In this document: positions 7,146 to 43,901 of the stretch, piece after piece
Position numbering within the stretch: position 1 is the first letter of the stretch
Layout of the letters: each line of letters starts with the position of its first letter
Origin: Candidatus Parcubacteria bacterium
Lineage (GTDB): Bacteria > Patescibacteriota > Minisyncoccia > Phycocordibacterales > UBA918
Assembly (NCBI GenBank): GCA_039799085.1
Contig: JBDLTL010000002.1
Coordinates: forward strand, 1-57,114
DNA length: 57,114 nt
Reading direction: 5' to 3'
Translations under genes and position numbers: made by a program
The notes under the pieces: model-generated
Told to the model about the DNA's origin: nothing
What the model saw: the letters and a program-made list of their open reading frames with translations, nothing else
Database searches by the model: none

Positions 7146-8930
7146 ATGAAGCAGATTCGAAATTTTAGTATCATCGCGCACATCGACCACGGGAAGTCGA
7201 CCTTGGCTGACCGTATGCTCGAAGCGACCAAGACAGTTGAGCAGCGCAAAATGAAAGAACAGGTACTCGACTCAATGGAACTCGAGCGAGAACGAGGCAT
7301 CACTATTAAGATGCAGCCAGTTCGTATGCACTACCAGCATGGTGGCGAAACGTACGAACTCAACCTCATCGATACCCCTGGGCACATCGACTTTTCGTAC
7401 GAAGTATCGCGAGCTCTCAAAGCAGTTGAAGGAGTCCTTCTTCTTGTCGACAGTACTCAGGGTGTGCAGGCGCAGACACTCACAACACTTCAGATGGCGA
7501 AAGACCAAAACCTTACTATCATTCCAGTCCTCACGAAGACAGATGTTCCCCATGCGCGAATTGAGGAGGTGGGAGATGAGGTGATTAATCTTTTGGGGTG
7601 TCAGCGAGAAGATATCATGCTCGTCTCTGGTAAGACTGGTGCCGGTGTCTCGGATTTACTCGAAGCTATCTGTGTGCGCGTACCACAGCCAAAGGAAAGC
7701 AAGGGAGACGTCTATCGTGGACTTATCTTCGACTTCCAGTATTCCAATCACCGAGGGATTATTGTCTTTATGCGTGTAATTGATGGTGCGGTAAAGAAGG
7801 GCGACACACTGAAGTTCGCAGCTAGCAAAAAGTCGTTTACCGCACTTGAGGTAGGAGTAGTAACACCGCAAGAGACGCCACAGGATGCGCTTGGAGCGGG
7901 GCAAATTGGCTATATCGTGACTGGCATCAAAGAGCCTGGTGTGGCGTACGTGGGCGATACTCTCATTCCCGACAAGTCTGTTGCAGAAGCTCTACCAGAC
8001 TTCCAGCATGCCAGACCGGTCGTGTGGTCGTCTATTTTTCCAGAGAATCAGGATGAGTTTACACAGCTTCGCCAAGCACTTGATAGACTTCGACTTTCAG
8101 ATTCATCACTTTCATTTGAAGAAGAATCTTCTGGTGTGCTTGGGCGCGGATTTCGTTGCGGCTTCCTTGGGATGCTTCACATGGAAATTATCACCGAGCG
8201 CCTCAGGCGGGAGTTTGATATTGAAATTATTATCACGGCGCCGTCAATTTCATATGAGGTAACCTGGTCAGATGGCAAGATGGAAAACATCTACGCCGCC
8301 AATCGTTTCCCAGAACATGGTGAAAAGGTGACGGTACGCGAACCGTGGGTATTGGGCCAAGTCATTCTTCCGGGAGAGTATATGGGAGATGTTCTTACGC
8401 TCCTGTATGAGCACGAAGCAAGTGTTATAGATACCGAGCTCTTCGGAGACGGGCGCACACTTCTCGCTGTTGAGATGCCACTTCGTGAACTCATGCGAGG
8501 TTTCTTCGATAAGCTCAAGAGTGCCTCAAGTGGCTACGCGTCACTTTCGTATGAGATTGCAGAGATGCGTCCTGCTTCTGTGACGAAACTTGATATTTTG
8601 GTCGCGGAAGAGTTGGTGCCAGCCTTTTCTCGCGTTGTTGGTATGGCTAGGGCAGAGACTGAAGCTAAGATGATTGTCGAGAAGCTGTACCAATCTCTTC
8701 CGCGACAACAGTTCGTGGTGAAGATTCAGGCAAAAGTCATGGGACACCTCACGGCTACAAAGAAACTCTCATCAGTAGGGAAGGATGTAACGGCGCACCT
8801 CTATGGTGGAGACATTACTCGCAAGATGAAGCTTCGTGAGAAGCAGAAGAAGGGTAAGGCGAAAGCACTTGAGCGTGGCAAGGTCCACATTCCTCAGGAT
8901 GTCTTTATGAAGATGATGAGGAATGAATAA
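7146..8930 (+). CDS. lepA: Translation elongation factor 4 (LepA)
   Basis: IRNFSIIAHIDHGKSTLADR G1 motif, DTPGHIDF G3 motif, and the LepA-specific C-terminal domain (YGGDITRKMKLREKQKKGK). Confidence 0.95.
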   Translation: MKQIRNFSIIAHIDHGKSTLADRMLEATKTVEQRKMKEQVLDSMELERERGITIKMQPVRMHYQHGGETYELNLIDTPGHIDFSYEVSRALKAVEGVLLLVDSTQGVQAQTLTTLQMAKDQNLTIIPVLTKTDVPHARIEEVGDEVINLLGCQREDIMLVSGKTGAGVSDLLEAICVRVPQPKESKGDVYRGLIFDFQYSNHRGIIVFMRVIDGAVKKGDTLKFAASKKSFTALEVGVVTPQETPQDALGAGQIGYIVTGIKEPGVAYVGDTLIPDKSVAEALPDFQHARPVVWSSIFPENQDEFTQLRQALDRLRLSDSSLSFEEESSGVLGRGFRCGFLGMLHMEIITERLRREFDIEIIITAPSISYEVTWSDGKMENIYAANRFPEHGEKVTVREPWVLGQVILPGEYMGDVLTLLYEHEASVIDTELFGDGRTLLAVEMPLRELMRGFFDKLKSASSGYASLSYEIAEMRPASVTKLDILVAEELVPAFSRVVGMARAETEAKMIVEKLYQSLPRQQFVVKIQAKVMGHLTATKKLSSVGKDVTAHLYGGDITRKMKLREKQKKGKAKALERGKVHIPQDVFMKMMRNE

Positions 8931-9026
8931 ATGTCCGAAGGACATATTATGAATTTCGTTCCGAATTTGCCTAAACCCTAGGGCAAATTCCTGGAACTAG
9001 TCGAACGCTTACAAAGTATTGTGAAC

Positions 9027-12490: not shown

Positions 12491-14662
12491 TTATTTATCT
12501 TGCGGCCATTTTGCCACCATCAGAAGCTCACTATCTTTCATTGTTTCTGGGAGCTCTTGCCAGATTGTCTCGGTGACAAATGGCATGAATGGATGGAGGA
12601 GCTTGAGAGAGGTGGTTAGACATTCGATTAGTAATTTCTGTCTAGCTTGGCGAGCGTTTCCTCCACCATCACTTTTTATGTAGATTTTTGAGTCCTCAAT
12701 TATATCGGAAGCGAATTTATCCCATACAAAGTGATAGATTTTCTCAGCAGCCAGGTCAAAACGGTCTTTATCCATTAATGCATCAATCTCTTGAGTAGTC
12801 ACCTCGAGTTCATTTCTTAATATAGTGTCAACTGCCCCCGGCTCAGGATTATTTAGATAGTCGTGGTCAGTTGTCGAATCAAGCACAAACCTAGTGATAT
12901 TCCAAAGTTTATTTGCGAATTTCTTGTACGCGTTTACTTTATCAGGATCAAGGTTCATGTCAGTTCCTGGTACGTTGTTTACCATAAGTGCCATACGGAG
13001 AGCATCGGTTCCGTACTTTTCTTGAATTTCGCTTGGGGCAATCACATTTCCTTTACTCTTACTCATCTTTTTACCATGCTTATCTCGTACCATTCCGTGT
13101 AGGTAGATTTTCTTAAACGGCACTTTTTGGGTGCGGTAAAGTCCAAGCATAATCATGCGCGCCACCCAGAAAAAGATGATATCTTTTCCTGTTTCCATCA
13201 CAGAAGTAGGGTAGTAGTTTTTGAAGTCATCGCTTTCACCACCAAAGTCAGTAACACAAAGCGGCCATTGCCCAGAAGAAAACCAAGTGTCAAACGTATC
13301 AGGATCTTGGTGGACATTGCCACCACACTTCGCGCAAGAAGAAACATTATTTTCGATATCTACCATCCCGTGACCACAGTCATCACATACTTTGGCAGGG
13401 ATCGAGATACCCCACGCAATTTGTCGCGCGATTGGCCAGTCGTCGATGTTGGTAAGCCAGTGCCGGAAGACACGTTCGTCTCGTTCAGTTACAAATTCAA
13501 ACTTCTTAGCGTCGAGTGCACTCAGTGCTTTTTCAGCCAGCGGCTTCATGTTTACAAACCACTGCTCTTTAATTTGTGGTTCGATTTCACGGCCACACTT
13601 ATAACAACAGGGAACAGAGTGATTATATTTTTCATCAATATGGTCCAGCAATCCTTTAGCTTCAAGTTTTTCAACTATCTTCTTACGAGCATCGCGAATA
13701 TCCATGCCAGCAAATTCTTCCGCAATCGGGAGCAGCTTTCCGCGCCAGTCGATAATTTGCTCATAGTCTAGATTGTGGCGCTTGGCGATTTCGAAGTCGA
13801 TACCAGAGTGCCACGGAGTGATAGTCATCACACCAGTACCCATTTCAGGGTCACCAGCTTCATCTTTAATCACGGTTGCTGTAATCGGTCCGTTAATCCA
13901 TTCAAGTTCAATTTTTTGTCCGTGTTCGTATTCGGCGTAACGGGCGTCATCGGGGTGCATCACCACGTACTTGTCACCGAATTTTGTCTCCGGACGTGCG
14001 GTACCAATTACAAACGGTCCGTACTTGAAGTAGTAGAACGGCTCGGTTCGTTCCTCGTGTTCTACCTCAAGATTTGAAAAAGAAGTCTGATGTTTCGGAC
14101 ACCAGTTGCTTGAACGAGCGCCGCGATAGAGCAGTCCATCAGTTTCGAGCTGCTTAAAAGTGTCATAGACAATCTTGACCACCTTGTCATCAAGGGTGAA
14201 GAGTTCGCGCGACCAATCGCAGGATGCTCCAAGGGAACGAATCTGGCCTTCCATGAAAGACTTGTTGGCAAGGGTGAAGTCGAGAATTTCTTTATATAGT
14301 TCCTCGCGACTCATTTGGAAGCGAGAACGACCTTCTTTTTCAAGTTTCTTCTCATACACTACCTGTGTCTCAAAGCCAGCGTGATCAGCTCCAGGGAACC
14401 AAACAGCTTTCTTCCCGCGCATACGCTCAAAACGCATCATGATGTCTTGGACGGTCACAAAAAGCGCGTGGCCAGCATGGAGTGAACCATTAGCATTAGG
14501 CGGAGGCATCACAATAGAGAATTGCTCAGTCCGCTCACCAGGTAGATTGTCAGGGTTAAAATACCCCGATTTTTCCCAAAGCTCATAGATGCGATTCTCA
14601 TGATCTTCGGGGCTGTAGGGGCTTAAAAAAAGCTTAGGAATATTGGTTTTTTCGTCACTCAT
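12491..14662 (-). CDS. valS: Valine--tRNA ligase (short form, 723 aa)
   Basis: Class I aaRS with PPPNANGSLHAGHA (HIGH region) and KMSKSKGN. The ValRS-like N-terminus is YSPEDHENRIYELWEKSGYF. There is no long C-terminal coiled coil. Confidence 0.9.
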   Translation of the reverse strand: MSDEKTNIPKLFLSPYSPEDHENRIYELWEKSGYFNPDNLPGERTEQFSIVMPPPNANGSLHAGHALFVTVQDIMMRFERMRGKKAVWFPGADHAGFETQVVYEKKLEKEGRSRFQMSREELYKEILDFTLANKSFMEGQIRSLGASCDWSRELFTLDDKVVKIVYDTFKQLETDGLLYRGARSSNWCPKHQTSFSNLEVEHEERTEPFYYFKYGPFVIGTARPETKFGDKYVVMHPDDARYAEYEHGQKIELEWINGPITATVIKDEAGDPEMGTGVMTITPWHSGIDFEIAKRHNLDYEQIIDWRGKLLPIAEEFAGMDIRDARKKIVEKLEAKGLLDHIDEKYNHSVPCCYKCGREIEPQIKEQWFVNMKPLAEKALSALDAKKFEFVTERDERVFRHWLTNIDDWPIARQIAWGISIPAKVCDDCGHGMVDIENNVSSCAKCGGNVHQDPDTFDTWFSSGQWPLCVTDFGGESDDFKNYYPTSVMETGKDIIFFWVARMIMLGLYRTQKVPFKKIYLHGMVRDKHGKKMSKSKGNVIAPSEIQEKYGTDALRMALMVNNVPGTDMNLDPDKVNAYKKFANKLWNITRFVLDSTTDHDYLNNPEPGAVDTILRNELEVTTQEIDALMDKDRFDLAAEKIYHFVWDKFASDIIEDSKIYIKSDGGGNARQARQKLLIECLTTSLKLLHPFMPFVTETIWQELPETMKDSELLMVAKWPQDK

Positions 14663-14763
14663 GTAGCGTCGATAATAACATATTTCTATATTAAATTAAA
14701 ACCGTGTTATATAATTTTAGAAATCTCACTTTAAGATAAAAAAGTAATTAAATTCTTGTAGCA

Positions 14764-16932
14764 ATGAATGTAAAAAATGAAATTATAACAATCAGAGCCT
14801 GTGGGTACCCCTATCTAGTTGAAAGGTTGGTCATTTCTATTTTATCGAATATTAAAAGTTACGGAATGCAGCGTGACTGTGTAATTATAAATATAATAAA
14901 TGACACAAAAACAAAGGATTCAGTAAAAGTTTTTGAAACTTTAGTTTCTCGACTTAATTCTGTAACATTGAGTAATGTTGTAATAGATTTGTATCACATA
15001 CATGACAAAAACAGACTCTTAAAAAAACTTGATGATTACAGAGGTAACACGATCCCAAAAGAAGAGTTAAGGATGATAATTTCTCAAGAGTTTCAAAATC
15101 TCGGAGGTACAGTAGGGGCTTATAACTATGCATTACTTGTAAGTCAGTACACAATCGGAAAGTATAATTTAAATGAGATAGAAACAATTGCAACTTTCCA
15201 CGATGACGATGTTCATTATAGTGTATTAGAAAAAAGTAAAGATGGATACAAAGTAAGTAATTTTGATTTTTTTAGAGAGAGACAGACATTATTTCTTGAT
15301 TCAAGATGTAAGGCCATCTCAGGCAGGTATACTCATCATACAGGATCTCCTTATAAAATGCTCCTAAATTTTTTTTCTGTTCTAGAAATAATGGTCAAGT
15401 TATCTGTTAATAAAAAAAATGACAGGACAGTCCTTCACACTTTTGAGAATGAAGAAAATCAAATTATTACGAGTGGTAATATCAAAAATAATGTAACAAA
15501 AGTACTCAATAGTTTCATACAGAGAACACCAGTAGCGGGACTCTATACTGTAGAGGGGAACGCCAGAGAAGCAGATCAAGAAAATTTTACAATCAATGGC
15601 GGCATTTTAAGTATTAGAGCAACCGAACTTGAAAATCTGTTGATAATTCCGTTTTCCCTTCAAGATTTAGTGTTAACTGCACAAATAAGGAACGAACTTG
15701 GTCAGGGTAGTCTTTTTGTTTGTACAGGATTAAGGCATATACGAAACCCTAAAGAGACAGGTCTTGCCGCAAGTCCTCATCTTTTGATAGATGCTGTCTT
15801 GCGTGAAGATGATGCAAAATTATACATGTGTCTAAAGAAGCTTTTGGTTGATAAAAAAGAGATTTTAGGTAAAAAAATGAAGGACATATCAGTCAACAGA
15901 TACAATGAACTTAGGAAAGCGTTTTCACAGTTGAAAAAAAATTCTCATAATCTAGAAAACCTAAAAGTAACGAGTCCATATTTAGCACAGACTTATAAAG
16001 AAGTCTTATCCTGCGAAAAGACTTTGTTGAATCTGGTTTCTTACTCAAATTCAGATGCTGCTCTCTATCGAAGAAGTGAATATCTTTGGAATCTTTACAT
16101 TAATGTTTATCCCTACAGAAAAGAAATACATAAACTTTTTAAAGACTTGGGATCTCATGATTTAGTTTCTAAAAAATTCAAAGCGGCACATCTAGCCCTT
16201 GGGGCGGAAGTCCCCGTGCTTTTCTCGTTTGATTTGGATGGTACTCTACGATCAGGGGAGACGGGTCCATTAAGGAAAGGTTCAGATACGTTGACTTCTC
16301 TGATAAAAAAAATCAATGAGAATAATATAACTGTATTAAATACTAATAACAGTATTGAGTCGGCGCTGAGTGCTAATGAGATTTTGCGATTTGATTATGT
16401 TATCTGTGAGAACGGTTCTCTGATTTTTGATTGTAAGTCAAAAGAGTTAGTAGTTGTCGCTAAAACAAGTTATTTAACTGAACAGAGAGAGATTATTAAT
16501 AAGCTAAAGAGAGCAAATATTAAGTTTTTTCATCAAAGAAAAGCAACTATTTATATACGTGATGGAGAAAAATTTTTACTTTTGTTAAACTCATTAAATA
16601 TAAATCTTGAAAATTTAGGAGTACAGTGTTTTTTTTCAAGAAATGGAAACTATAAAATCCAACTCGGTCCGCCGAACGTTAATAAATTTACCAGCATAAA
16701 TTACATCCTTGATTATAATCAAGCAATCGAAAACGCCTTTCATTTTGGAGACGATGTACTGGATGTACTTCCAGAGGATTGTGTGAGTAAAAAAATTAAG
16801 ACAATTGGAATCAAAAACCATAGATTAGAGGAAGGGTCTAATTCTCGATTTGACCATATTTTGGCACATGAAGATATTCACGGTATAATAAATTTTCTTA
16901 AAATCTTGGATTCTAGTAGAATGTTTTTATGA
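14764..16932 (+). CDS. Fusion protein: N-terminal GT-A-like glycosyltransferase-type domain plus C-terminal HAD-IIB phosphatase domain
   Basis: N-terminal part has ITIRACGYPY beta1, GGTVGAYNYALL and a HDDDV (DxD-like) motif. C-terminal part has FSFDLDGTL (HAD motif I), VLNTNNS (II), NVNKFTS (III Lys) and FGDDVLDV (IV). Confidence 0.55.
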   Translation: MNVKNEIITIRACGYPYLVERLVISILSNIKSYGMQRDCVIINIINDTKTKDSVKVFETLVSRLNSVTLSNVVIDLYHIHDKNRLLKKLDDYRGNTIPKEELRMIISQEFQNLGGTVGAYNYALLVSQYTIGKYNLNEIETIATFHDDDVHYSVLEKSKDGYKVSNFDFFRERQTLFLDSRCKAISGRYTHHTGSPYKMLLNFFSVLEIMVKLSVNKKNDRTVLHTFENEENQIITSGNIKNNVTKVLNSFIQRTPVAGLYTVEGNAREADQENFTINGGILSIRATELENLLIIPFSLQDLVLTAQIRNELGQGSLFVCTGLRHIRNPKETGLAASPHLLIDAVLREDDAKLYMCLKKLLVDKKEILGKKMKDISVNRYNELRKAFSQLKKNSHNLENLKVTSPYLAQTYKEVLSCEKTLLNLVSYSNSDAALYRRSEYLWNLYINVYPYRKEIHKLFKDLGSHDLVSKKFKAAHLALGAEVPVLFSFDLDGTLRSGETGPLRKGSDTLTSLIKKINENNITVLNTNNSIESALSANEILRFDYVICENGSLIFDCKSKELVVVAKTSYLTEQREIINKLKRANIKFFHQRKATIYIRDGEKFLLLLNSLNINLENLGVQCFFSRNGNYKIQLGPPNVNKFTSINYILDYNQAIENAFHFGDDVLDVLPEDCVSKKIKTIGIKNHRLEEGSNSRFDHILAHEDIHGIINFLKILDSSRMFL

Positions 16933-17540
16933 GTCGAGTCCATTCTCCCAAAAGTCTAATTTTAGAAGGTGTTTCTGGCTCTGGAAAGACGACGATATAT
17001 CAAAATTTAGCCAGATACGCGATTGAGCATTCTATTAAATCAGAATTTGTTTCTGAGGAAAGAACTGTTTTAAAAATGTTGGATTCCACTGTACTTTCTG
17101 ACAATGTAGTGTATTTATTAAATTTGTTAGATATAACTTACTTAGATCAAAAGGATTTAACTGTTTTTGACAGGTTTCATTTTACACACACAATCAAAAC
17201 GAACGCAGGTCTTGATGATTTCAAAGAGGTTGAAGATATTCTTTTAGCCAAGGAGACGATTATTTTGTTTCTGCGCGTTTCTAAGAAGGAAATGTACGAT
17301 AGATTTAATAAAGCCTTAAAGTACAAATCAACAAAGTGGGTTAATTACATGAGGAAAGCTGGATTGGTTAGCACTGAAGATCTTGTGGAATATCATTTCG
17401 CACGCCAAAATTATTTCGAGAATTTATTAAACTCCACTCGATTGGAGCATTCTATTTTAGATGTCGCCGATTATAATTATATAGATTTGACTTACAAAAT
17501 TATTGATATTCTCCAGATAGAACCTGGTCAACTTTTGTGA
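16929..17540 (+). CDS. P-loop kinase-like protein (dNK/NMP-kinase fold)
   Basis: Walker A LILEGVSGSGKTT and a DRFHFTH segment. The start overlaps the upstream stop as ATGA. Confidence 0.55.
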   Translation: MSRVHSPKSLILEGVSGSGKTTIYQNLARYAIEHSIKSEFVSEERTVLKMLDSTVLSDNVVYLLNLLDITYLDQKDLTVFDRFHFTHTIKTNAGLDDFKEVEDILLAKETIILFLRVSKKEMYDRFNKALKYKSTKWVNYMRKAGLVSTEDLVEYHFARQNYFENLLNSTRLEHSILDVADYNYIDLTYKIIDILQIEPGQLL

Positions 17541-19257
17541 GCAGGTAGTCTCCGATTGCCAAGTATTTCAAGTCGCTGTTAATAAAAGTTTTGACTGCGT
17601 CTAAGGGACTCTCTACAATAGGTTCCCCGTGTAAGTTAAAACTTGTATTCAATATTACGCTTTCGCCAGTGATTTCTTTGAAGTATTTTATTAAATTATA
17701 GTACTTACTATTATTTTCGTAACTAACCATTTGAGGTCTGCAGGTTTTATCGCTTGGGTGAATGGCGGCCTGCATAGATGATTGTTCGCTAAGTTTTGTA
17801 TGAAAACCAAGTGCCATATAAGGAGAAAAATAGCCTCTTTCATTATATAAGTATTTCACACTGTCTTCTAAAAGAATGCTGGGCGCAAAGGGCATCCAGA
17901 AATCTCTACATTTTATAGAGTCGTTAATTTTTTGCACAATTCCAAATATGGAAGGATTCGCTAATATCGACCTGTTTCCTAATCCTCGCGCACCCCACTC
18001 CATTCGGCCGTTAAATCGCGCGACAATCTCTCCGACTGATAACAATCTTGCAATTTCCTTTTCAATTTTTAAATTTTCGTCAAAAAAAGTAATCGATACT
18101 TTTTGATTTTGAATTGAACTTATACACTTAAAAATATCATTATTGTTGTATTCTGTTCCTAAGTATAAGTCATTAATCCTCCGCGGTGTAAAACCGTTTG
18201 TTGCATGAAAACCATAGTATGCTGCACCAATTGCTAGCGATTCATCCCCGCAGGATGGTGTAACCTGAAAATCTTCAAGATCTAGGGTCTCTAATAGTCT
18301 CTGGTTCATTTTAATGTTCATGAAGACGCCGCCACTTACAGATATTTTTTTACAATCGTATGTATTTATAGTTTCTGATAGTAATTCGAGAACAGTTTCT
18401 TCTGTAAAATTTTGAATAGCCAGTGCCAATTCATCAAATCTATAATTCAAAAAATTCTGCACTAGCATATCCAAGTGTGCGAATTTCATATCGAAATTAC
18501 TACTCAATGAAAGGGTTTTTCTATTGACTCTAAGAATTTTACGGAAATACTCGAGAGGTTCTCTGTCAGAGCCCTGTCTGGCGTATGGAGCCATTCCCAT
18601 TACCTTAAATTCATGTTCGTTTTCTCGCATGGCTAGCAATTGCGTTACCTTTGAATATAAAATTCCAAGCGATGATTTTTTGTCTGTTGTGGCCAGCCTA
18701 ACTAGCTTGTTATTCTGAAATGATGATATTGATCCTGATTCACCATCGCCCTCTCCATCGAGTGTGATAATAAATCTGCCATCTCTATCATCAGTAAAAG
18801 CTAACGCCGTCCATGCATGTGAGTCGTGATGATTGAGGTTAATGATGGGTGTGCCTGGAAAAAGCTCGCCCAAAATTAGCGATATCTTTCTGTGCAAAAT
18901 GAAACCTCGAAAGTATTTATAGAACCCCCTTACTTCATCGTATAATTCAGTCAGTCCGATCTTGTAAAATAGAACAGAAGCAAAATACTTTTGCTTTCTG
19001 CGTTTTCTCAGATTTATATTTTTGTCTATACTAAACAGTGCAGTTTTATACTTACCATTAGCAGATACGGTTACTACTTTATCAAAGTTACTGATTTTGT
19101 ATTTTTCTTTAATATAGTTTACTGACAAGTAGGGAATGCCACGATGCCCTTTTTGTCTAGAAAACCTTTCTTCGTTTATTGCTTCTATTAATAAATCATC
19201 ACATAGAAGAGCTACACCTGCATCGTGACCAACATTAACACCTAAAATATATTTCAT
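17500..19257 (-). CDS. Carbamoyltransferase (NodU/CmcH family)
   Basis: N-terminus ILGVNVGHDAGVALL..EAINEERFSRQKGHRGIP, and a C-terminal LNTSFNLHGEPIVESPLDA motif typical of the family. Confidence 0.85.
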   Translation of the reverse strand: MKYILGVNVGHDAGVALLCDDLLIEAINEERFSRQKGHRGIPYLSVNYIKEKYKISNFDKVVTVSANGKYKTALFSIDKNINLRKRRKQKYFASVLFYKIGLTELYDEVRGFYKYFRGFILHRKISLILGELFPGTPIINLNHHDSHAWTALAFTDDRDGRFIITLDGEGDGESGSISSFQNNKLVRLATTDKKSSLGILYSKVTQLLAMRENEHEFKVMGMAPYARQGSDREPLEYFRKILRVNRKTLSLSSNFDMKFAHLDMLVQNFLNYRFDELALAIQNFTEETVLELLSETINTYDCKKISVSGGVFMNIKMNQRLLETLDLEDFQVTPSCGDESLAIGAAYYGFHATNGFTPRRINDLYLGTEYNNNDIFKCISSIQNQKVSITFFDENLKIEKEIARLLSVGEIVARFNGRMEWGARGLGNRSILANPSIFGIVQKINDSIKCRDFWMPFAPSILLEDSVKYLYNERGYFSPYMALGFHTKLSEQSSMQAAIHPSDKTCRPQMVSYENNSKYYNLIKYFKEITGESVILNTSFNLHGEPIVESPLDAVKTFINSDLKYLAIGDYLLTKVDQVLSGEYQ

Positions 19258-19539
19258 GATATTGAAGAGAATAGACCAATATATTGTAATGTATTAAAAA
19301 GCAGAAGTTGTGTATTTGTGTAGATAATCTAAAACAAATAAGTGACGGATACTAAAATACCTCTGGAATATTGGGTGTTTGCTCGTTCATATGTAAGGGC
19401 GATGGTATCACGAAATAGGGGATTTAAAAAACGTCCGGGCCGCTCTATTTCTCTTGCGTTGTGTGAGCAAAGGAGTACAATTTTGTAAACGTTGAGCCTG
19501 CTGTGCCCCGGTAGCCACCCTTATAAAAATCGTAACAAA

Positions 19540-20151
19540 ATGCTTATGTCAGAGATAATTCTTTATCCGACAGAGACGGTGTATGCGCTTGGGGTCAATC
19601 CCTTCGATCGCACCGCATGGCACGACCTCTGTGAACTCAAAGGTCGTCATGGTGATCAGACGGCAAGTTGGCTCCTGCCATCGATTGAAGATATTAGTTC
19701 TTATGCTGAGGTGACTCCCAAAGCAAAGGAGCTTATAGAGCGCTACATGCCGGGACCGTTTACTATTGTGCTCAAAGCCAATAGCTACATTCCGCGCTCC
19801 ATGCAAGCACTTGATGGAACGGTGAGTTTTAGGGTGTCATCAGACCCCGTTGCCAAGCAACTCATTGAAGAGTACATGGCAGTTCATAATGTACCGCTCA
19901 CCTGTACTAGCGCCAATCTTCACGGTCAGCCGACAATGGGCACGCCACAAGATATTGCTCGGCAATTTGGTGATAAGGTGCAAATGATTACCAAGATTAT
20001 CGACGACGGTCCTAGAATGGGTCGCCCATCAACTATTGTGCGATGTGTCGACAATCAGGTGTCAGTACTTCGTCAGGGAAGTGTGAAGATTAATATAGAA
20101 GAGGCAGAATCAGTGGTTAGATCAAGCTATCTAGTCAGGGTGGAGTTGTAG
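19540..20151 (+). CDS. tsaC: L-threonylcarbamoyladenylate synthase (TsaC/YrdC/Sua5 family)
   Basis: YPTETVYALGVNPFD, KGRHGDQ and LTCTSANLHGQP motifs. The track start TTG 19492 was replaced by ATG 19540. Confidence 0.85.
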   Translation: MLMSEIILYPTETVYALGVNPFDRTAWHDLCELKGRHGDQTASWLLPSIEDISSYAEVTPKAKELIERYMPGPFTIVLKANSYIPRSMQALDGTVSFRVSSDPVAKQLIEEYMAVHNVPLTCTSANLHGQPTMGTPQDIARQFGDKVQMITKIIDDGPRMGRPSTIVRCVDNQVSVLRQGSVKINIEEAESVVRSSYLVRVEL

Positions 20152-29692: not shown

Positions 29693-30025
29693 CTACATTG
29701 CTTCAATAATTTCCATCACCTCAATGTAGCTGTCCTGAAACTCTAAGTGTGGTGAATTCTTGAGAAGTTCCACAGCATCATCCATTGAGTCGGCTGTTAT
29801 GATCGAGTAGCCGCCGACCTCGTTTGGCACGGACATGCCACCGCCAGTTTTTATTCTCGTGTTCTTGCCGACGGGGTTACCTTCGTCTAAGAAGTTGGCA
29901 CTGTGGCTATCCATCCACTTCTTCCACTTTTCCACCTCATCTCTCTGTTCGGAGAAGGGTTGCTCAGCCATCATCTTTGCCATCGCTTCACTCGGCATGT
30001 TGTACAAGATTAAAAATTTTTTCAT
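29693..30025 (-). CDS. YCII/DGPF-like small protein
   Basis: About 110 aa with a GGYSIITADSMDDAVELLKNSPHL...IEVMEI pattern resembling the YciI-like fold. Confidence 0.5.
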   Translation of the reverse strand: MKKFLILYNMPSEAMAKMMAEQPFSEQRDEVEKWKKWMDSHSANFLDEGNPVGKNTRIKTGGGMSVPNEVGGYSIITADSMDDAVELLKNSPHLEFQDSYIEVMEIIEAM

Positions 30026-30199
30026 ATTGTGCATGGTGCTTGTGATTAAGGGCTAGTAATGCTGATAATACTTGTATGGTACTCCTCTGATAATGGAGGT
30101 CAAATATGTGCAAACGTTATTCGACGTGCGGGCAATGATTTCGGTAAGTTAGGTAAAAACCAGACAGAAATGCCATATCTTCCTGTCTGATTTTAATTC

Positions 30200-30361
30200 T
30201 CACCTACTTCGTGTAAGTCTATATTCACCCCAGACACCAAGCGCAACAATAACCACTCCCAGTCCCTGGGCCCCCGGACTATCGTCATATCCTCCATATA
30301 TAAATAGGAATACACCAAAAGCGACAACGACGCTTAAGCCAAGCATTTTGATAATTTTCAT
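30200..30361 (-). CDS. Hypothetical 2-TM micro-protein
   Basis: MKIIKMLGLSVVVAFGVFLFIYGG...VVIVALGVWGEY. A terminator hairpin lies downstream. Confidence 0.4.
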   Translation of the reverse strand: MKIIKMLGLSVVVAFGVFLFIYGGYDDSPGAQGLGVVIVALGVWGEYRLTRSR

Positions 30362-30441
30362 ACACCAAATATAACTGACATGGTCGTGTGGTAGTTGTGA
30401 AGTGGTTTCAAAAAACATTAGTAAAAAGGCAAGCATATAAA

Positions 30442-30479
30442 GAAAAAGTCCGGCGCACGTGTGTGCGCCGGACTTTTTC
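30442..30479 (-). terminator. Terminator
   Basis: gtccggcgcac / gtgcgccggac stem flanked by an A-run and a T-run. Confidence 0.8.
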
Positions 30480-30518
30480 TTTATGCTGTGAGCCGAATCG
30501 TGATGGAACCAAATGATT

Positions 30519-30719
30519 TCATTGCCCTGTAAGGCTTTTTTGACTATTCATATCTGATTCACTTCGACCCTTCTCGAGAGGAGCATTTTTATACAAATCA
30601 GGGTTCTGTTTCTTGTCTTCCTTAAGTAGCCAAGTAAAGACATTTACCACTCGCTCTCGCTCTTCATCTGTCCAACCACTTATATTTTTAATATCCATAA
30701 AAAGTGACAAAAGTGACAC
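30519..30719 (-). CDS. Hypothetical small protein
   Basis: 66-aa ORF. No family recognised. Confidence 0.4.
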   Translation of the reverse strand: MSLLSLFMDIKNISGWTDEERERVVNVFTWLLKEDKKQNPDLYKNAPLEKGRSESDMNSQKSLTGQ

Positions 30720-30756
30720 ATATCACAAGTTAAAAGTTACAATCGTGTGTAACTTT

Positions 30757-30966
30757 TTATGGCGTAGTAATTAATTGTGTCAGCACTGAAATCAATACAA
30801 GACTGGCTATGATTGCGACTACCTTGCCATAGATACTCTTAAATATATCTTGGAAGAATCTACATGTCATTTTAAAAATTAGCCTAAATAGACCAATAAC
30901 TATTTGCCATAGAACAGTTACTATAATCAGCAATATCTCCAAGAGATTTTCTAAGAAATTTTTCAT
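30757..30966 (-). CDS. Hypothetical 2-TM membrane protein
   Basis: 69-aa hydrophobic ORF followed by a 10-bp inverted repeat (30732-30757). Confidence 0.45.
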   Translation of the reverse strand: MKNFLENLLEILLIIVTVLWQIVIGLFRLIFKMTCRFFQDIFKSIYGKVVAIIASLVLISVLTQLITTP

Positions 30967-31125
30967 AAATAAAGAATTTTAATAAACAGCAAAGCACCCG
31001 AAGGTGCTTTGTGAGCAGGTGCATCTTCTGATCGCCGTTATGCGTGCCATTCTGAAATGAACTGAGTCCTGAGTACCTATATCAAGCAAGCAGGCTCTAT
31101 CTTTCTCGAAGCGTTTGCCAAGTAC

Positions 31126-31332
31126 CTATTTTTTGCGGTTGTACGGCGACTGGTTAGTTGGTCGCAGACTTACGTCTAGCTGACTCGCTCTGGAGCGTAC
31201 CGCATCCTCGGTTCTTCCCAGTTTAAGGCCAATTACGCGCGTCGGTGTATTCTGTTTGGCTAGTTGACCAAGCTCACGCTCTTGCTTTGGTGTCCATGCT
31301 GTTCCAGAATTTCTGATGTAGTGTTTTGTCAT
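31126..31332 (-). CDS. Small basic protein with putative SANT/Myb-like helix-turn-helix
   Basis: MTKHYIRNSGTAWTPKQERELGQLAKQNTPTRVIGLKLGRTEDAVRSRASQL. It starts 4 nt after the upstream gene stop. Confidence 0.45.
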   Translation of the reverse strand: MTKHYIRNSGTAWTPKQERELGQLAKQNTPTRVIGLKLGRTEDAVRSRASQLDVSLRPTNQSPYNRKK

Positions 31333-31336
31333 ACGA

Positions 31337-31603
31337 TTAGTGATTATTGAGCCATTTGGCTGTGTTGGGCAGGTTGTAGGTTGCCCATACTTTAGTATTA
31401 ATGTTAATGACCAGAACCTTGTCATTTGAGTCAACGAGCTTCTGGAGGTCGTTTAGGATATCTTCTGCCGAGCGAGCTGACTGGATAAGATACACAGTCT
31501 GTAGGGGTTTCATCCTATCGGTGTATTTTTCCATGTAGTCGTACACGGGCTGGTAGTTTCTTCCTGGGCTAACCAGGTCGAAGCTGATCAGGTAGCTATT
31601 CAT
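31337..31603 (-). CDS. Hypothetical 88-aa protein (predicted beta-alpha-beta-beta-alpha-beta pattern)
   Basis: MNSYLISFDLVSPGRNYQPVYDYMEKY...DKVLVININ. First gene transcribed divergently from the XRE repressor gene. Confidence 0.5.
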   Translation of the reverse strand: MNSYLISFDLVSPGRNYQPVYDYMEKYTDRMKPLQTVYLIQSARSAEDILNDLQKLVDSNDKVLVININTKVWATYNLPNTAKWLNNH

Positions 31604-31696
31604 TGTTCTTGTTTTAGTTATACTGATAAGTGAATAATGGGTGAGCGGTAGCGAAGCGCTCCCAAATATGATACTCTCATCCAGTAACATGTAAAC

Positions 31697-31770
31697 GTAA
31701 CAAATTGTTACCAATGTAACTGTAAGTTACATAGATGTAATCCTAGATAACATTTGTAACGAATCGTTAC
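31697..31770. promoter_or_regulatory. Three GTAAC-N5-GTTAC palindromic operators in a divergent control region
   Basis: gtaacaaattgttac (31697-31711), gtaactgtaagttac (31716-31730) and gtaacgaatcgttac (31756-31770). Confidence 0.7.
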
Positions 31771-31795
31771 CTGTTGCCCACATCAATATCAACTT

Positions 31796-32161
31796 ATGCC
31801 CAAGAAGAAGGCTACACTAATAGATGAGCAGTCAAACGCTGAGGAAGCGGTGAAAAAATGCGTCGGCAAGAAAATCAGTGAGATGCGCAATCGCCTGAAC
31901 TTCAGTGCACTCACTGTGTCTGAACATCTAGGTATTTCCCGTGTGGCGGTGACCCAGATTGAGACTGGTAGAAACAACATCACTGCCGTCAGTCTCTGGA
32001 AATTGGCTACATTGTTTGGTTGTGAGGTTTCAGATTTTTTCCCTGATGTACCGGATGGATATGCGCTTACAAAAGTCGATATCCATAAGGTGGCTCAAGA
32101 AGACGAAAAGGCCGCAGTGTGGGCCGAAAAGATTTTCATAAAGAAAAAACATGATAAGTAG
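31796..32161 (+). CDS. XRE-family HTH transcriptional regulator (ImmR-like repressor)
   Basis: LNFSALTVSEHLGISRVAVTQIETGRNNITAVSLWKLATLFGCEV, a canonical XRE HTH. Confidence 0.85.
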   Translation: MPKKKATLIDEQSNAEEAVKKCVGKKISEMRNRLNFSALTVSEHLGISRVAVTQIETGRNNITAVSLWKLATLFGCEVSDFFPDVPDGYALTKVDIHKVAQEDEKAAVWAEKIFIKKKHDK

Positions 32162-32645
32162 AATTGAAAAAATAGCCGAGGACGTACTCACACATTTCAA
32201 ATTAGATGTGACTCCTGTTCCTGTAGAAGAGGTGGCGAGTCGTCTACAGATAAAAATCGGCAGAGAGCCTAGTGAAGATTTTTCTGGAATCCTTATACGT
32301 AAAGATGGTAAGGCGTTAATCGGTGTAAATAGTAATGAGTCTTTTGTTCGCCAACGATTTACAATTGCTCATGAATTAGGTCATTTTATTCTTCATAAGG
32401 AGAAGGAAACTTTTGTTGACTACCGTGATAATCAAAAGGAAATTATGAGAACACCTCGTGAGAAGCAGGCAAATGCTTTTGCCGCTGCTTTACTTATGCC
32501 TAGAACTAGACTTATTAAAGATGTAAAAGCTAAGTTTAAAGATGGTATATATGAAGAAGATCTTGTCGAGTTAGCAGAATTGTACGAAGTGAGTACAGAA
32601 GCAATGAAGTATAGACTAATGAATTTAAATTTGATTCACTCATAA
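32151..32645 (+). CDS. ImmA/IrrE family metallo-endopeptidase
   Basis: HELGHFILH zinc motif, overlaps the XRE gene end, and ANAFAAALLMP is typical of the family. Confidence 0.85.
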   Translation: MISRIEKIAEDVLTHFKLDVTPVPVEEVASRLQIKIGREPSEDFSGILIRKDGKALIGVNSNESFVRQRFTIAHELGHFILHKEKETFVDYRDNQKEIMRTPREKQANAFAAALLMPRTRLIKDVKAKFKDGIYEEDLVELAELYEVSTEAMKYRLMNLNLIHS

Positions 32646-32655
32646 ATTTCAGACT

Positions 32656-33072
32656 ATGGATTACAAGATTGAAGCAAAACCATTTGTCCATAAATCAGGA
32701 CAGAAGTATCTCACTTTAGAGATTACTGACATGGCTTTTCATTCTAGTAATCCGAGAGAGACCGTGAAGATCGGTAAAAAGATGGAAGAAGCAATTGCCG
32801 AGAAGCGGGCTGGACGTTTTTACAAACCCTTAACAAGTCCGCCTCCATTGGATCGTGCTTCGATTAGGCAATATATAATAGAACAACTTCAACAGAATGA
32901 AGATTTTGTACGTCTGGTTAAGGAGCAGGAGGAACAAGGTGTAAAAGTTCTCATCGCCATACCTGAAGACTATATTCCTGTCGGCCTAGGGGCTGATGCC
33001 GTTGAATTTATGAATAGTAAGAATGGTAAACGGTTAATAAGAGGGGTTGCAAAGGAAAAAAGAGAGGAATAG
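32656..33072 (+). CDS. Hypothetical protein (138 aa)
   Basis: Third gene of the XRE/ImmA operon. No family recognised. Confidence 0.55.
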   Translation: MDYKIEAKPFVHKSGQKYLTLEITDMAFHSSNPRETVKIGKKMEEAIAEKRAGRFYKPLTSPPPLDRASIRQYIIEQLQQNEDFVRLVKEQEEQGVKVLIAIPEDYIPVGLGADAVEFMNSKNGKRLIRGVAKEKREE

Positions 33073-33235
33073 AATTACAAGTACAACTTTGCGTAGTAAA
33101 AAGTAGAGTAGCGTATCGCCTTAGGCCATGCCTACTTCGCGCAAGAAATAAGTAGTCTTTCGACCAGCTTATTTCGTGTGTGGAGTAGGCATTTTCTATA
33201 TCCATACATTTTATTGAATTTAATTCACTAAAAGT

Positions 33236-34519
33236 ATGCAAAAGCTACAATGGGCAACTGTCCAGAAGAAAGTAGACGATCTTGTTCCGCAGGAAATTAA
33301 TCCTCGCAAGATCACCGACGCTCAGATGAAAGCTCTCACAGAGAGTCTGAAGAAGTTCAATCTAGTAGAGATACCAGCTATAGACGCAGATGGCACAATC
33401 CTTGCTGGTCACCAGCGTATTAAGGCACTTCAGCTCTTAGGTCGGGGTGAAGAATTAATCGACGTACGGGTACCAAACCGCAAACTCTCTGACAAAGAGT
33501 CTAAGCAATACCTCATAGGTTCAAACAAGCTCGGGGGCGACTGGAATTATGATCTCCTCAAAGCGTTCGATATGGACACTTTGTCTTTCGCTGGCTTTGA
33601 ATCAATGGAGCTAGCGAAGTTTTGGGACGAGGACAGCGCTACTAAAGAAGATGACTTCGACGTAGAAAAGGAACTAAAGAAAATCTTCACCCCTAAGACG
33701 AAACTCGGGGACGTTATTCATCTCGGGCGACATAAGCTTATTTGTGGCGACTCCACTAAACCAGAAACGCTTACTCGACTACTCGGCACTGAGCGAGCCT
33801 CGATGATCTACTCAGACCCTGTATATAACATTCAGGTGAACTATGACGGTGGAATCGGTGGTAAGAAAGAGTACGGCGGAAATGTAAATGACTCTCGTAC
33901 CTTTGAAGAATACCAGACGTTCATCAAGGATAGTCTCAGTGCCGCCCTTGCTGTATCAGAACCTAACACGCACGTCTTCTACTATTGCGACCAAATCTAT
34001 ATTGGACTGATTCAGGAGGTATATCGCTCACTGGGTATCGCAAATAAGCGAGTTTGTTTATGGCTTAAAAATTCGCAAAATCCCGTACCGAAAGTGTTTT
34101 GTAATAAGGCGTATGAGCCTGCTGTGTATGGTGTGCGAGGAAAGCCCTATCTAGCTGAGAGTATGCAGGATCTAAATGAAGTACTTAACAAAGAATTTAG
34201 TACAGGTAACGAGCTGATCACACAGGTTGATGATTTTATTGAAATATGGACCGCTAAGCGACTGTCTGCCAAAGACTACCAGCACGCCACCTCAAAACCA
34301 TTCACACTCCACGAAAAAGCGATTAAACGTTGTACCAAGCCAAATGACATTATCCTCGATAGTTTTCTTGGCTCTGGTAGTACGCTCCTAGCGGCTGAAC
34401 AGCTAGGACGACGAGTCTATGGTTGCGATTTAGAACCTCGGTTTTGCGACCTCATTATCAACCGCTTTGAAGCTATGACAGGCACCAAAGCAATCGTTGA
34501 ACGGTATGAAGAAAAGTAA
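33236..34519 (+). CDS. ParB-like nuclease domain fused to N4/N6 DNA methyltransferase
   Basis: N-terminal INPRKI...ILAGHQRIKAL (ParB/Srx motif). C-terminal SDPVYN (motif IV-like) and DSFLGSGST (motif I). Confidence 0.85.
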   Translation: MQKLQWATVQKKVDDLVPQEINPRKITDAQMKALTESLKKFNLVEIPAIDADGTILAGHQRIKALQLLGRGEELIDVRVPNRKLSDKESKQYLIGSNKLGGDWNYDLLKAFDMDTLSFAGFESMELAKFWDEDSATKEDDFDVEKELKKIFTPKTKLGDVIHLGRHKLICGDSTKPETLTRLLGTERASMIYSDPVYNIQVNYDGGIGGKKEYGGNVNDSRTFEEYQTFIKDSLSAALAVSEPNTHVFYYCDQIYIGLIQEVYRSLGIANKRVCLWLKNSQNPVPKVFCNKAYEPAVYGVRGKPYLAESMQDLNEVLNKEFSTGNELITQVDDFIEIWTAKRLSAKDYQHATSKPFTLHEKAIKRCTKPNDIILDSFLGSGSTLLAAEQLGRRVYGCDLEPRFCDLIINRFEAMTGTKAIVERYEEK

Positions 34520-36553: not shown

Positions 36554-37831
36554 ATGACAGAGGTATTACAAAGCGACTATAAATACGTCCTATACGCACG
36601 TAAGTCGACCGAAGGCGATGAAAAACAAGCTCTTTCAATTGATTCACAGATTAAAGAAATGACTCAAATTGCTGAACGAGAGAAGCTCAATATTGTTGAG
36701 ATAAGACGAGAGTCTCACTCAGCTAAAGAATCAAGTCAGCGTCCTGTATTTGAGGAAATAGTACGAGATATCGATAACGGCATTTTTAATGCCGTTATCA
36801 CATGGGCTCCTGATAGACTTTCTCGTAATGCAGGCGACCTAGGCAAGCTTGTAGACCGAATGGACCAGAAGAAACTCATAACGATAAAGACTTTTGGACA
36901 AAACTTCACAAATTCACCAAGTGACAAGTTTCTCCTCATGATCTTGTGTTCGCAAGCCAAGCTCGAGAATGACAATAAAAGTATCAATGTGAAGCGTGGT
37001 ATGAGAACGAGGTGTGAGATGGGCTTGTGGCCAGCTCAGCCACCAACGGGGTACCGAAAAGTTGATGGGCGACTTGCAAAATGCGAGGTGGAAATTGATC
37101 CTGAAAGAGCTGATATTATACGGCAAGTCTTTGAAAAGATTGCCTATGAGAAATGGAGTGCTTCCAAGGTGCATGCGTGGCTTAAATACGATCTAAACTT
37201 CCGTACTTTACGTGGTTATCACTTAAGTATTGGGAATGTCTTCAAAATCATTAATAACACTTTCTACTATGGCAGATTTGAGTTCCCTCAAGGTTCTGGT
37301 ATCTGGTATGACGGCAAGCACACACCCCTTATAACCAAAGAGCTATTTGATGAGACCAGAAACTCAATCAAATCACAGGTCATAAAGTCACAAGGCAAGG
37401 AATTTGCCTTCACTCGAATGATGAAGTGTGGAGTTTGTGGATCGGGTATTACGGCTGACGAGAAATTCAAGAAACTCAAAGCTGGAGGAGTGAATCGTCA
37501 TGTCTACTATCGTTGTACCAAAGCAAAGGACAGAAGTTGCAAGAATCCAGCAATTAATGAGCCCGACTTAATTACAGCCATGACAAAAATGCTCGATACT
37601 ATCAGTCTTGATCAAGTGAAGCTAAACACCAAGCTGAATGCTGAAATTCAGAAGTTTAAGAAGCTTCAGGCGATGTTTCTAGGAAAGAAGAAGACTGAAA
37701 AGATCGAATCAATTGATGTGCGTGATTATGCAAGATTTGTACTCACTGAAGGAAGCGTACTTGAGCAGAGGTCTGTATTGGAGTGTATTAGCAGTGAATT
37801 GATTTTAAAAAATTCAATTATAAAAATTTAG
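36554..37831 (+). CDS. Large serine recombinase (integrase)
   Basis: Resolvase catalytic N-terminus YARKSTEGDEKQALSIDSQ, a recombinase domain, and a zinc ribbon CGVCGS...YYRC. Confidence 0.9.
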   Translation: MTEVLQSDYKYVLYARKSTEGDEKQALSIDSQIKEMTQIAEREKLNIVEIRRESHSAKESSQRPVFEEIVRDIDNGIFNAVITWAPDRLSRNAGDLGKLVDRMDQKKLITIKTFGQNFTNSPSDKFLLMILCSQAKLENDNKSINVKRGMRTRCEMGLWPAQPPTGYRKVDGRLAKCEVEIDPERADIIRQVFEKIAYEKWSASKVHAWLKYDLNFRTLRGYHLSIGNVFKIINNTFYYGRFEFPQGSGIWYDGKHTPLITKELFDETRNSIKSQVIKSQGKEFAFTRMMKCGVCGSGITADEKFKKLKAGGVNRHVYYRCTKAKDRSCKNPAINEPDLITAMTKMLDTISLDQVKLNTKLNAEIQKFKKLQAMFLGKKKTEKIESIDVRDYARFVLTEGSVLEQRSVLECISSELILKNSIIKI

Positions 37832-38817: not shown

Positions 38818-38822
38818 ATTTT

Positions 38823-41738: not shown

Positions 41739-41740
41739 AT

Positions 41741-43612: not shown

Positions 43613-43614
43613 AT

Positions 43615-43898: not shown

Positions 43899-43901
43899 TT
43901 C

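Follow-up and report, generated by a model that had tools for sequence, protein, structure and literature searches.

How does a foreign set of genes come to lie inside an essential gene without destroying it, and what might such genes make? Bacteria of the candidate phyla radiation (CPR; Patescibacteria) have tiny genomes, and little is known of their gene gain and accessory chemistry. The question is raised here by a 57,114-nucleotide (nt) stretch of DNA (contig JBDLTL010000002.1; the whole stretch is termed the window herein) from an uncultured, Kaiserbacteria-like Parcubacterium of the CPR, in which three AT-rich genes, termed A, B, and C, adjoin valS, an essential aminoacyl-tRNA synthetase gene. 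We found that a block of 4.7 kb entered valS about 37 nt after its start codon (around codon 13) and that the incoming DNA most likely brought its own valS-like start of 12 codons together with an AT-rich presumed promoter region, so that valS stays intact. Our best overall explanation, which we put forward tentatively, is that this block is a horizontally acquired cassette inside valS that would make a carbamoylated glycoside through a phosphorylated intermediate. The kinds of system involved, an integrative islet on the one hand and two-step glycoside synthesis joined by a carbamoyltransferase on the other, are known ones and make up no new category. What goes beyond a first reading of the sequence is that the islet sits inside valS, whose 5′ end it replaces, that promoters have apparently been swapped, and that the association with valS recurs. 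The locus offers a case of gene gain resolved to the base: the two junctions are covered, one relative preserves the empty site, and empty-site relatives coexist in the same sample. This gain took place inside an essential aminoacyl-tRNA synthetase gene that was repaired by the incoming DNA.

Composition, boundaries, and insertion into valS

The islet (positions 14663 to 19353) had a G+C content (GC) of 0.337, compared to 0.452 in the remainder of the window; in a sliding profile, GC was 0.32 to 0.37 over ∼14.5 to 19.5 kb and 0.44 to 0.50 in the flanks. None of 172 nonoverlapping windows of the same length reached the low GC of the islet, and none of the 172 reached its tetranucleotide distance (z = 6.6). 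The GC-normalized tetranucleotide correlation with the background was 0.385 for the islet versus 0.817 ± 0.065 elsewhere (minimum, 0.69), and the GC at third codon positions was 0.27 to 0.33 in A, B, and C and 0.45 to 0.50 in valS, tsaC, and tsaD. An earlier note on this DNA, made from the letters alone, had reported a sharp drop in G+C between valS and tsaC and proposed a comparison with the background; the GC profile and the window counts bear out the drop, and the islet proved statistically extreme. The three genes also are as that note described them: A (14764 to 16932, plus strand; 722 amino acids [aa]) is an open reading frame (ORF) with the motifs HDDDV, FSFDLDGTL, and FGDDVLDV; B (16929 to 17540, plus strand; 203 aa) is coupled to A by an ATGA overlap; and C (17500 to 19257, minus strand; 585 aa) is convergent with B, their 3′ ends overlapping by 41 nt. 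The right edge had been placed too far out, at 19491. The foreign DNA ends at 19353, and positions 19354 to 19491 are native, consisting of a remnant of the valS 5′ end and of valS/tsaC intergenic DNA.

An independent JGI assembly (L101) showed the same arrangement with 99.90% identity over 15.4 kb, and identical pieces spanning both junctions were found in contigs of three studies (two freshwater and one aquatic). Because the independent assembly agrees and contigs of three studies cover both junctions, an assembly artifact is ruled out for the locus.

Several metagenome-assembled genomes (MAGs) of relatives of the host carry a valS that is 82 to 87% identical. The synteny conserved among relatives is tsaD-(tsaC)-valS-PrsW-Hsp20, with tsaD or tsaC at most 400 nt from valS in 39 of 80 related loci, and A, B, and C gave no tblastn match in the 80 related species-level genomes or loci. 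One relative, L023, represents the empty site: its tsaC and valS are divergently adjacent, 145 bp apart, and it is 86%, 89%, and 79% identical to the window in valS, tsaD, and tsaC, respectively. It is thus a relative of the kind that the earlier note had suggested looking for, with valS adjoining tsaC and no islet between them. Window positions 19354 to 19620 are collinear with L023, from 37 nt inside valS through the intergenic region into tsaC, and the segment from 19354 to 19390 (minus strand) is therefore the original valS start, now orphaned. This remnant reads MNEQTPNIPEVF, followed by a TAG created by the junction; the corresponding starts are MNEQKPNIPELF in L023 and MNEQKPTIPELF in a further relative, L008. 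The active valS begins with another 37 nt (MSDEKTNIPKLF; 14626 to 14662, minus strand), which replace the original 5′ end. They are followed by the native body of the gene, from about codon 13 to the stop (12491 to 14625, minus strand; 80 to 88% DNA identity to valS of close relatives; Pfam tRNA-synt_1, E value of 1e-117). The islet does lie between valS and tsaC, as first described, but its actual site is inside valS.

The segments at 14626 to 14662 and 19354 to 19390 form the left and right copies of an imperfect direct repeat (D2) of 37 nt with 73% identity, and the similarity stretches ∼13 nt upstream of the ATG, to ∼50 nt in all. The remnant has 5 and 9 mismatches in 37 positions to L023 and L008, respectively; the active start has 9 and 14, and between the two copies there are 10. 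This pattern fits an active start that was brought by the foreign DNA rather than a recent target site duplication, with the 37 nt being a small sample. Beyond nt ∼90, sliding identity of valS to its relatives is 80 to 88%, like that of a native gene. A large chimeric block in valS was considered and rejected: only the first 40 to 90 nt are atypical, this region is variable in all relatives, and the crossover point cannot be fixed within it.

The same metagenome contains lower-depth contigs of relatives in which valS is joined directly to position 19354 (14578 to 19354, skipping 4,775 nt) or to tsaC (14591 to 19509, skipping 4,917 nt). Since these contigs skip the islet, islet-free relatives coexist with the islet-bearing population. 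The depth over the islet equals that of one contig, and the flanks carry extra depth. With its extreme composition, its absence from all 80 related species, the empty site in L023, and the empty-site contigs of the same sample, horizontal acquisition of the islet, as proposed by the earlier note, is firmly supported. Like site-specific integrative elements, the islet has direct repeats on both sides and an empty site in relatives. A recombinase within the element is missing, as there are no genes but A, B, and C between the repeats. The earlier statement that there was neither integrase nor repeat was therefore right about the integrase and wrong about the repeats, and its remark that the acquisition mechanism was unclear was incomplete, since the islet lies inside valS with an imperfect copy of the valS 5′ end on either side, in direct orientation.

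We also considered whether the valS 5′ end might be a general insertion hot spot in this clade. This was rejected, as the larger tsaD-valS gaps of relatives contain no valS remnants. In five of the relatives (L021, L028, L034, L053, and L067), the tsaD-valS interval holds 4.8 to 6.9 kb of genes with host GC for large surface-type proteins, with DUF11, lamin-tail, PG-binding, and camelysin-like domains. In this clade, the interval varies but shows no link with the islet.

Promoter geometry and route of integration

The insertion has changed what lies upstream of two genes. Between the divergent genes valS and A lies an AT-rich, 101-bp islet segment (14663 to 14763) with a patchy, AT-shifted likeness to the native intergenic region. 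It presumably holds the promoters of both; transcription of valS would now depend on it, and the first 12 codons of valS would come from islet DNA. At the other end, the foreign DNA closes with a 96-nt leader upstream of C (19258 to 19353, minus strand), collinearity with the empty site starting only at 19354. The native valS promoter region (19391 to 19491), if active, would read through the 12-codon remnant and this leader into C, which is on the same strand. Neither 14663 to 14763 nor 19258 to 19353 gave a significant match in any fetched locus. The native divergent valS/tsaC intergenic region as a whole (19391 to 19545) aligns to that of L023. The longest tsaC ORF, from a TTG at 19492, is probably overextended: other assemblies call proteins of 201 to 203 aa, and the alignment with L023 favors an ATG at ∼19540 to 19546. 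With this start, the native intergenic region is ∼150 nt long, as in L023.

The most likely route of entry would be recombination of the chromosome, within the 5′ part of valS, with DNA from a low-GC Parcubacterium whose cassette was already a neighbor of valS. Such recombination might have been of the Campbell type or homology-facilitated and illegitimate, or the cassette might have been integrated site specifically by a recombinase since lost from the islet. Some observations count against this part of our explanation. The repeat of 37 to 50 nt is by itself modestly significant (16 of 500 shuffles score as high), and its reality follows from the collinearity with L023. Further, the islet contains no recombinase, and a donor that has A beside a valS of the window type was not found; the route of integration is for these reasons a model.

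Close parallels are integrative elements that enter a translation gene at its 5′ end and restore it, such as the SXT integrative and conjugative element in prfC. In both cases, a translation gene that is essential or nearly so is interrupted within its first codons by an element with imperfect direct repeats on either side; SXT reportedly provides a new promoter and 5′ coding sequence. Unlike SXT, the islet is only 4.7 kb long, has neither integrase nor conjugation genes, and resides in a CPR bacterium, and its repeats are 73% identical over 37 nt and do not form a short identical core.

The cassette and valS in Lloydbacteria-type Parcubacteria

Among 5.8 billion proteins, A had four other clusters at the 90% identity level (41 to 42% identity to A), all of them from Lloydbacteria-type Parcubacteria. 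Nine Lloydbacteria-type loci have a helix-turn-helix (HTH) gene, a gene that we term U, then A and B with ATGA-type coupling, and then a convergent C, which starts 6 nt downstream of the valS stop codon on the same strand. Co-occurrence of the three genes elsewhere, which the earlier note had proposed to look for, is thus found with the same order and orientation. The Lloydbacteria-type cassette (L001 to L007, L088, L089, L098, and L099) resembles the window islet in its homologous genes (A, 41% identical; B, 37%; C, 51%) and their overlaps. It differs in adjoining the 3′ end of valS, whereas the window islet lies inside the 5′ end, in having the two extra genes, and in a 38-aa N-terminal extension of A that the window protein lacks. 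U (205 to 214 aa) has a GxGxxG N terminus and a weak match to nucleoside diphosphate (NDP)-sugar dehydrogenases (E value of 9e-6). In L001, the cassette has a GC of 0.35 to 0.38 between host flanks of 0.45 to 0.49. The L099-type contigs and genomes have a GC of ∼0.38, like the cassette, which makes low-GC Parcubacteria plausible sources.

The Lloydbacteria-type valS is native, with the cassette in a variable slot directly after it. A cassette-free relative, L100 (valS 82% identical), has the same valS...tRNA-Ser...PRTase-PilM-T2SSE synteny, and the Lloydbacteria-type valS forms a smooth gradient of relatives; the idea that valS is itself cargo of this type was ruled out by the synteny with L100. 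No valS 3′ remnant was found at the far edge of the Lloydbacteria cassette. In L001, next to tRNA-Ser, a direct repeat of 55 nt (84% identical) and an inverted repeat of 100 nt (86% complementary), at 8350 to 8937 and 16988 to 17126, bracket the 8-kb HTH-U-A-B-C-valS segment, and two degenerate partial copies of the tRNA-Ser 5′ half lie upstream of tRNA-Ser (8544 to 8631). These repeats and partial copies might stem from an inversion or be scars of earlier integrations. The slot after valS is occupied differently in L097 (12196 to 15437; valS 90% identical, no cassette), where the cargo comprises tRNA-Val, a 294-aa GluRS/GluQRS-like paralogue, an archaeal-type methionine adenosyltransferase, a sulfotransferase-like protein, and an HTH gene 71% identical to that of the cassette. 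The slot may exchange HTH-linked cassettes.

In both lineages, which share just 41% identity in their valS proteins, the cassette thus adjoins a native valS, with C downstream of a presumed valS promoter. The repeated adjacency could stem either from transfer through homology in valS or from a functional coupling. If the coupling is functional, the substrate might be a nucleoside- or aminoacyl-adenylate-like compound or be related to tRNA, with expression tied to valS, and the product might be, for example, an antimetabolite against the aminoacyl-tRNA synthetases of competitors or hosts. The adjacency in two such divergent lineages and the place of C speak for such a coupling, the best family matches of B are thymidylate or nucleoside kinases, and the alternative cargo in L097 includes, besides the GluRS/GluQRS-like paralogue and the homologous HTH gene, an S-adenosylmethionine synthetase and a sulfotransferase. 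However, valS is a native single gene in both lineages, with no extra, resistant copy (in the window, the body is 80 to 88% identical to that of relatives; in L001, it is syntenic with the cassette-free L100), adjacency is explicable by recombination anchored in valS, and the GT-A domain, the Cof-type HAD domain, and the NDP-sugar dehydrogenase-like U point to sugars rather than nucleosides. We regard a valS-coupled function as very unlikely.

The geometry could also be read more boldly, in that the cassette would be a mobile unit that seeks out valS, lodging in or against this essential gene and taking over its expression signals. In the window, it could be said to replace the valS promoter and first 12 codons and to set its own C behind the native valS promoter; in Lloydbacteria, C could be regarded as fused into the valS transcription unit. 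If this were so, the host could not lose the cassette by sloppy deletion, the cassette would be expressed in step with translation capacity, and what it makes, perhaps a carbamoylated glycoside or nucleoside-like metabolite of a new kind, could act on the host or the competitors of the symbiont. We consider this speculation quite improbable.

The similar divergence of the cassette proteins (A, 41% identity; B, 37%; C, 51%) and valS (41%) between the two lineages bears on a further alternative, an ancestral native cluster that was lost from relatives, since these values alone could suggest shared ancestry. It is contradicted by the stranded valS remnant and the collinear empty site, which show insertion, by the lack of the genes in all 80 related species, and by the extreme composition. 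An assembly chimera is at odds with the independent assemblies and the contigs of three studies across both junctions. Either scenario is extremely improbable, and a cassette acquired by insertion into valS remains our preferred explanation.

Two side observations concern valS itself and the remaining low-GC DNA of the window. The two deeply divergent valS types (window, 12491 to 14662; L001, 14616 to 16796; 41% aa identity) each have many relatives of 70 to 90% identity in MAGs labeled Kaiserbacteria, Paceibacteria, or Parcubacteria, which reflects either loose taxonomic labels or two circulating valS lineages. A second low-GC block of the window (∼0.38; 36554 to 45206), next to tRNA-Glu (45132 to 45206), is a separate mobile and defense island. 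It encodes a large serine recombinase (36554 to 37831; 17 kb from the islet), a DUF3644 protein, a type III restriction Res subunit (38823 to 41738), a DNA methylase (41741 to 43612), an HTH protein (43618 to 43827), and a reverse transcriptase (44165 to 45088). Its recombinase is 52% identical to a large serine recombinase that follows the HTH gene of the cassette in L099, and its HTH protein is 42 to 47% identical to the cassette HTH protein. A further stretch of lowered GC (0.37 to 0.41; 30000 to 33500) contains several small ORFs.

Gene products and proposed pathway

Residues 1 to 478 of A gave no match in Pfam or NCBIfam and no sequence match in the PDB, and with a 31-sequence profile of the N-terminal domain, the PDB matches were confined to GT-B domains to which remote homologues are fused. 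Just 28 relatives of this domain came out of a profile search of 1.84 billion representative proteins; 26 of them are remote (16 to 24% identity) and have in common a core around an invariant G115...D148-D149...G194. D148 and D149 are invariant across the 31 family members, and H146-D147-D148-D149 follows strand E141-147, the arrangement of a DXD motif. An initial AlphaFold2 (AF2) run on five sequences was unusable (predicted local distance difference test [pLDDT], 45); after the remote homologues were added, the N-terminal part was modeled with a pLDDT of 86.7 and a predicted template modeling (TM) score of 0.88. The top Foldseek matches of this model in the PDB and BFVD were all GT-A glycosyltransferases (probability, 1.00). 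Those in the PDB included Chlorella virus hyaluronan synthase, glucosyl-3-phosphoglycerate synthases, mannosyl-3-phosphoglycerate synthase, GlfT2, and chitin and cellulose synthases, with GpgS and MpgS among the most compact ones (target-normalized TM scores of 0.42 to 0.47). The order of the sequence motifs is that of family GT2, with β1 followed by (T/A)C(N/G), β2 by DDS/NDT (NDT at residues 46 to 48), and β4 by DDD. On the predicted structure, the N terminus of A (residues ∼1 to 335; 14764 to 15770, plus strand) is a GT-A-fold (GT2-like) glycosyltransferase domain with predicted transfer activity, and the GT-A-like domain proposed in the earlier note is in this sense confirmed. Next comes an all-helical linker or bundle in the model (residues ∼338 to 478; 15771 to 16197, plus strand), a region that stand-alone family members of 470 to 496 aa also have.

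The C-terminal part of A (16198 to 16932, plus strand) is a Cof-type HAD-IIB domain, which agrees with the HAD-IIB phosphatase of the earlier note. Scanned alone, it matched Pfam Hydrolase_3 (PF08282; E value of 4e-13, 50.1 bits, cutoff of 20.9), and all five cassette A proteins passed this cutoff when scanned in the same way; a scan of the full-length protein missed the domain. The HAD motifs D490-L-D492-G-T494 (motif I, DLDGT) and G662-D663-D664...D667 (motif IV, GDDVLD) are invariant in the five proteins. The NCBIfam Cof subfamily model scored below its cutoff (E value of 5e-9; 36 bits against 137), as did the SPP subfamily model (20.8 bits against 107), and the MPGP and T6PP models were not listed among the NCBIfam matches of A. 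The best PDB profile match of the domain is the Cof-type sugar phosphatase PfHAD1 (E value of 2.8e-5).

B is a putative small-molecule P-loop kinase with a fold like that of nucleoside monophosphate kinases or thymidylate kinase (TMPK). Its Walker A motif (GVSGSGKT) and “DRF” motif (DRFHFTHT) are invariant, and it matched the phrog_761 thymidylate kinase over its full length (E value of 1.2e-8); a word-indexed homology search found nothing besides B itself. C is, as judged from its domains, a full-length O-carbamoyltransferase of the NodU/CmcH/TobZ type, as had been predicted. Both Carbam_trans_N (E value of 1.6e-30; 107 bits, cutoff of 24) and Carbam_trans_C (E value of 7.5e-56; 189 bits, cutoff of 27) were matched, and the Kae1-like N-terminal and YrdC-like C-terminal domains are both present over the whole length. 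The nearest solved structures, again over the full length, are 7xb6 (E value of 2.9e-57), GdmN, TobZ, and NovN (E values of 1e-57 to 1e-39). The NodU equivalog model NF041651 scored 91 bits against a cutoff of 1,000. The Pfam families that the earlier note expected were therefore recovered for the HAD domain and for C but not for the glycosyltransferase domain, where Glycos_transf_2 was not matched. Between Lloydbacteria-type variants, the ratios of nonsynonymous to synonymous substitution rates (dN/dS) were 0.05 to 0.10 for A, B, and C and 0.05 for valS, which shows strong purifying selection on all three. Neither a signal peptide nor a transmembrane segment was apparent in A, B, or C by eye, without a predictor.

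Two-step syntheses through a glycoside phosphate are known from GpgS/GpgP, MpgS/MpgP, SPS/SPP, and TPS/TPP, and the pathway that we propose would follow the same logic with two added steps. B would phosphorylate an acceptor or a sugar; the GT-A domain of A would then move a sugar from an NDP-sugar onto the phosphorylated acceptor, as GpgS and MpgS do; the fused HAD-IIB domain would take off the phosphate; and C would add an O-carbamoyl group from carbamoyl phosphate and ATP through carbamoyl-AMP, as in TobZ. We infer the substrates, the order of the steps, and the product from the observed folds and families, catalytic motifs, gene coupling, purifying selection, and co-occurrence. The domains, and the likeness of A to GpgS and MpgS, agree with a glycoside that first carries a phosphate, is then freed of it, and is carbamoylated. 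Cytoplasmic production of such a small glycoside is also what best suits the set of a GT-A domain with a Cof-type HAD domain, a kinase, and a carbamoyltransferase, plus U and a regulator in the fuller version of the cassette. The known systems resemble A in pairing a glycosyltransferase with a HAD-IIB sugar-phosphate phosphatase, in some cases as bifunctional fusions, and their proteins, like those of the cassette, are apparently cytoplasmic and soluble. A differs from the two-step glycoside synthases in its 140-aa helical insert between the two domains and in sharing 8 to 13% identity with them, without sequence membership in GT81, GT78, or GT55. We know of no described compatible-solute pathway with a P-loop kinase and an O-carbamoyltransferase as partners and, more generally, of no described pathway that combines these two with a GT-A-HAD fusion. 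C shares with NodU, CmcH, TobZ, GdmN, and NovN both domains at full length and, presumably, the carbamoyl-AMP mechanism. Its identity to these characterized enzymes is ∼30% or less, and its neighborhood differs from theirs in having no polyketide synthase, aminoglycoside, or Nod genes nearby.

The proposed pathway has its weak points. The GT-A matches of A are distant (Foldseek E values of 5e-6 to 1e-3, 8 to 13% identity, and a high root mean square deviation), and its N-terminal domain has no sequence membership in a curated glycosyltransferase family. The N-terminal part of the HAD domain also weakly matches phosphomannomutases and could be a mutase. B falls below every curated cutoff (Pfam Thymidylate_kin, 26.1 bits against 27), and its nearest structures are ambiguous (gluconate kinase, E value of 0.014; TMPK, E value of 0.13); for this protein, the Walker A motif of the earlier description stands, whereas the assignment as a kinase depends on subthreshold matches.

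The phosphomannomutase match leads to another arrangement of activities, in which B would be a sugar kinase, the HAD-IIB domain a mutase of the phosphomannomutase type, and the GT-A-like domain a sugar-1-phosphate nucleotidyltransferase, so that together with C, and U where present, the cassette would supply an NDP-(carbamoyl)-sugar to glycosyltransferases encoded elsewhere. The matched phosphomannomutases are of the eukaryotic type, UDP-GlcNAc pyrophosphorylase is among the fold matches of A (rank 24), and U resembles NDP-sugar dehydrogenases. Yet the N terminus of A follows the GT2 pattern and, as read from the sequences, does not have the GxGTR signature of nucleotidyltransferases; its top fold matches are true glycosyltransferases, and the best match of the HAD domain is the phosphatase PfHAD1. 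Such a supply of activated sugar seems to us decidedly unlikely.

Alternatively, the cassette might modify a cell surface glycan, a possibility that the earlier note had raised: a surface polymer or glycoprotein (pili, S-layer, or wall glycan) would receive a carbamoylated sugar that alters host attachment or phage receptor properties. NodU-type enzymes do carbamoylate oligosaccharides, the gene of one remote A homologue (P0007) is clustered with those of a DegT aminotransferase and a GT2 enzyme, other homologues are fused to GT28/GT1-like GT-B domains, the tsaD-valS interval of relatives holds variable surface proteins, and strain-variable AT-rich islets often encode surface variation. However, the cassette and its immediate surroundings contain no transmembrane segment, flippase, polyprenyl-phosphate transferase, or polymerase; surface glycan assembly does not typically involve a fused HAD-IIB sugar-phosphate phosphatase or a soluble kinase; and A, B, and C look cytoplasmic by the inspection described above. 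On balance, surface glycan modification is a doubtful, though not negligible, candidate, and we retain the carbamoylated glycoside made through a phosphorylated intermediate as the preferred reading. Should its product be a new carbamoylated solute or interaction molecule, it would offer a rare point of access to the accessory metabolism of episymbionts, and A, B, and C are small enough for heterologous expression tests.

Other roles and origins were considered and dismissed. PADLOC gave no match for A or C and only generic P-loop matches for B (E values of at least 1e-5), none of which is meaningful for a defense system. A and B had no match in viral contigs, and C had one, at 29%; by tblastn, A and B had no match in plasmids, and B had none in phages. 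The viral-contig and plasmid searches thus lend no support to a phage or plasmid origin. Phage-type DNA hypermodification by a kinase and a carbamoyltransferase was rejected as well, there being neither a viral context nor base-modifying partner genes.

With 28 detectable members in 1.84 billion representative proteins and a place in no curated family, the GT-A family of A is very rare. Some of its remote members are stand-alone proteins in small CPR-like genomes, among them P0007, whereas others are fused to GT-B domains. In P0010, P0014, P0016, and P0024 (990 to 1,370 aa), the rare GT-A-like domain is combined with a C-terminal GT28/EryCIII-like GT-B domain, and P0016 additionally has an N-terminal StiP-like region; these four proteins may be two-step glycosyltransferases.

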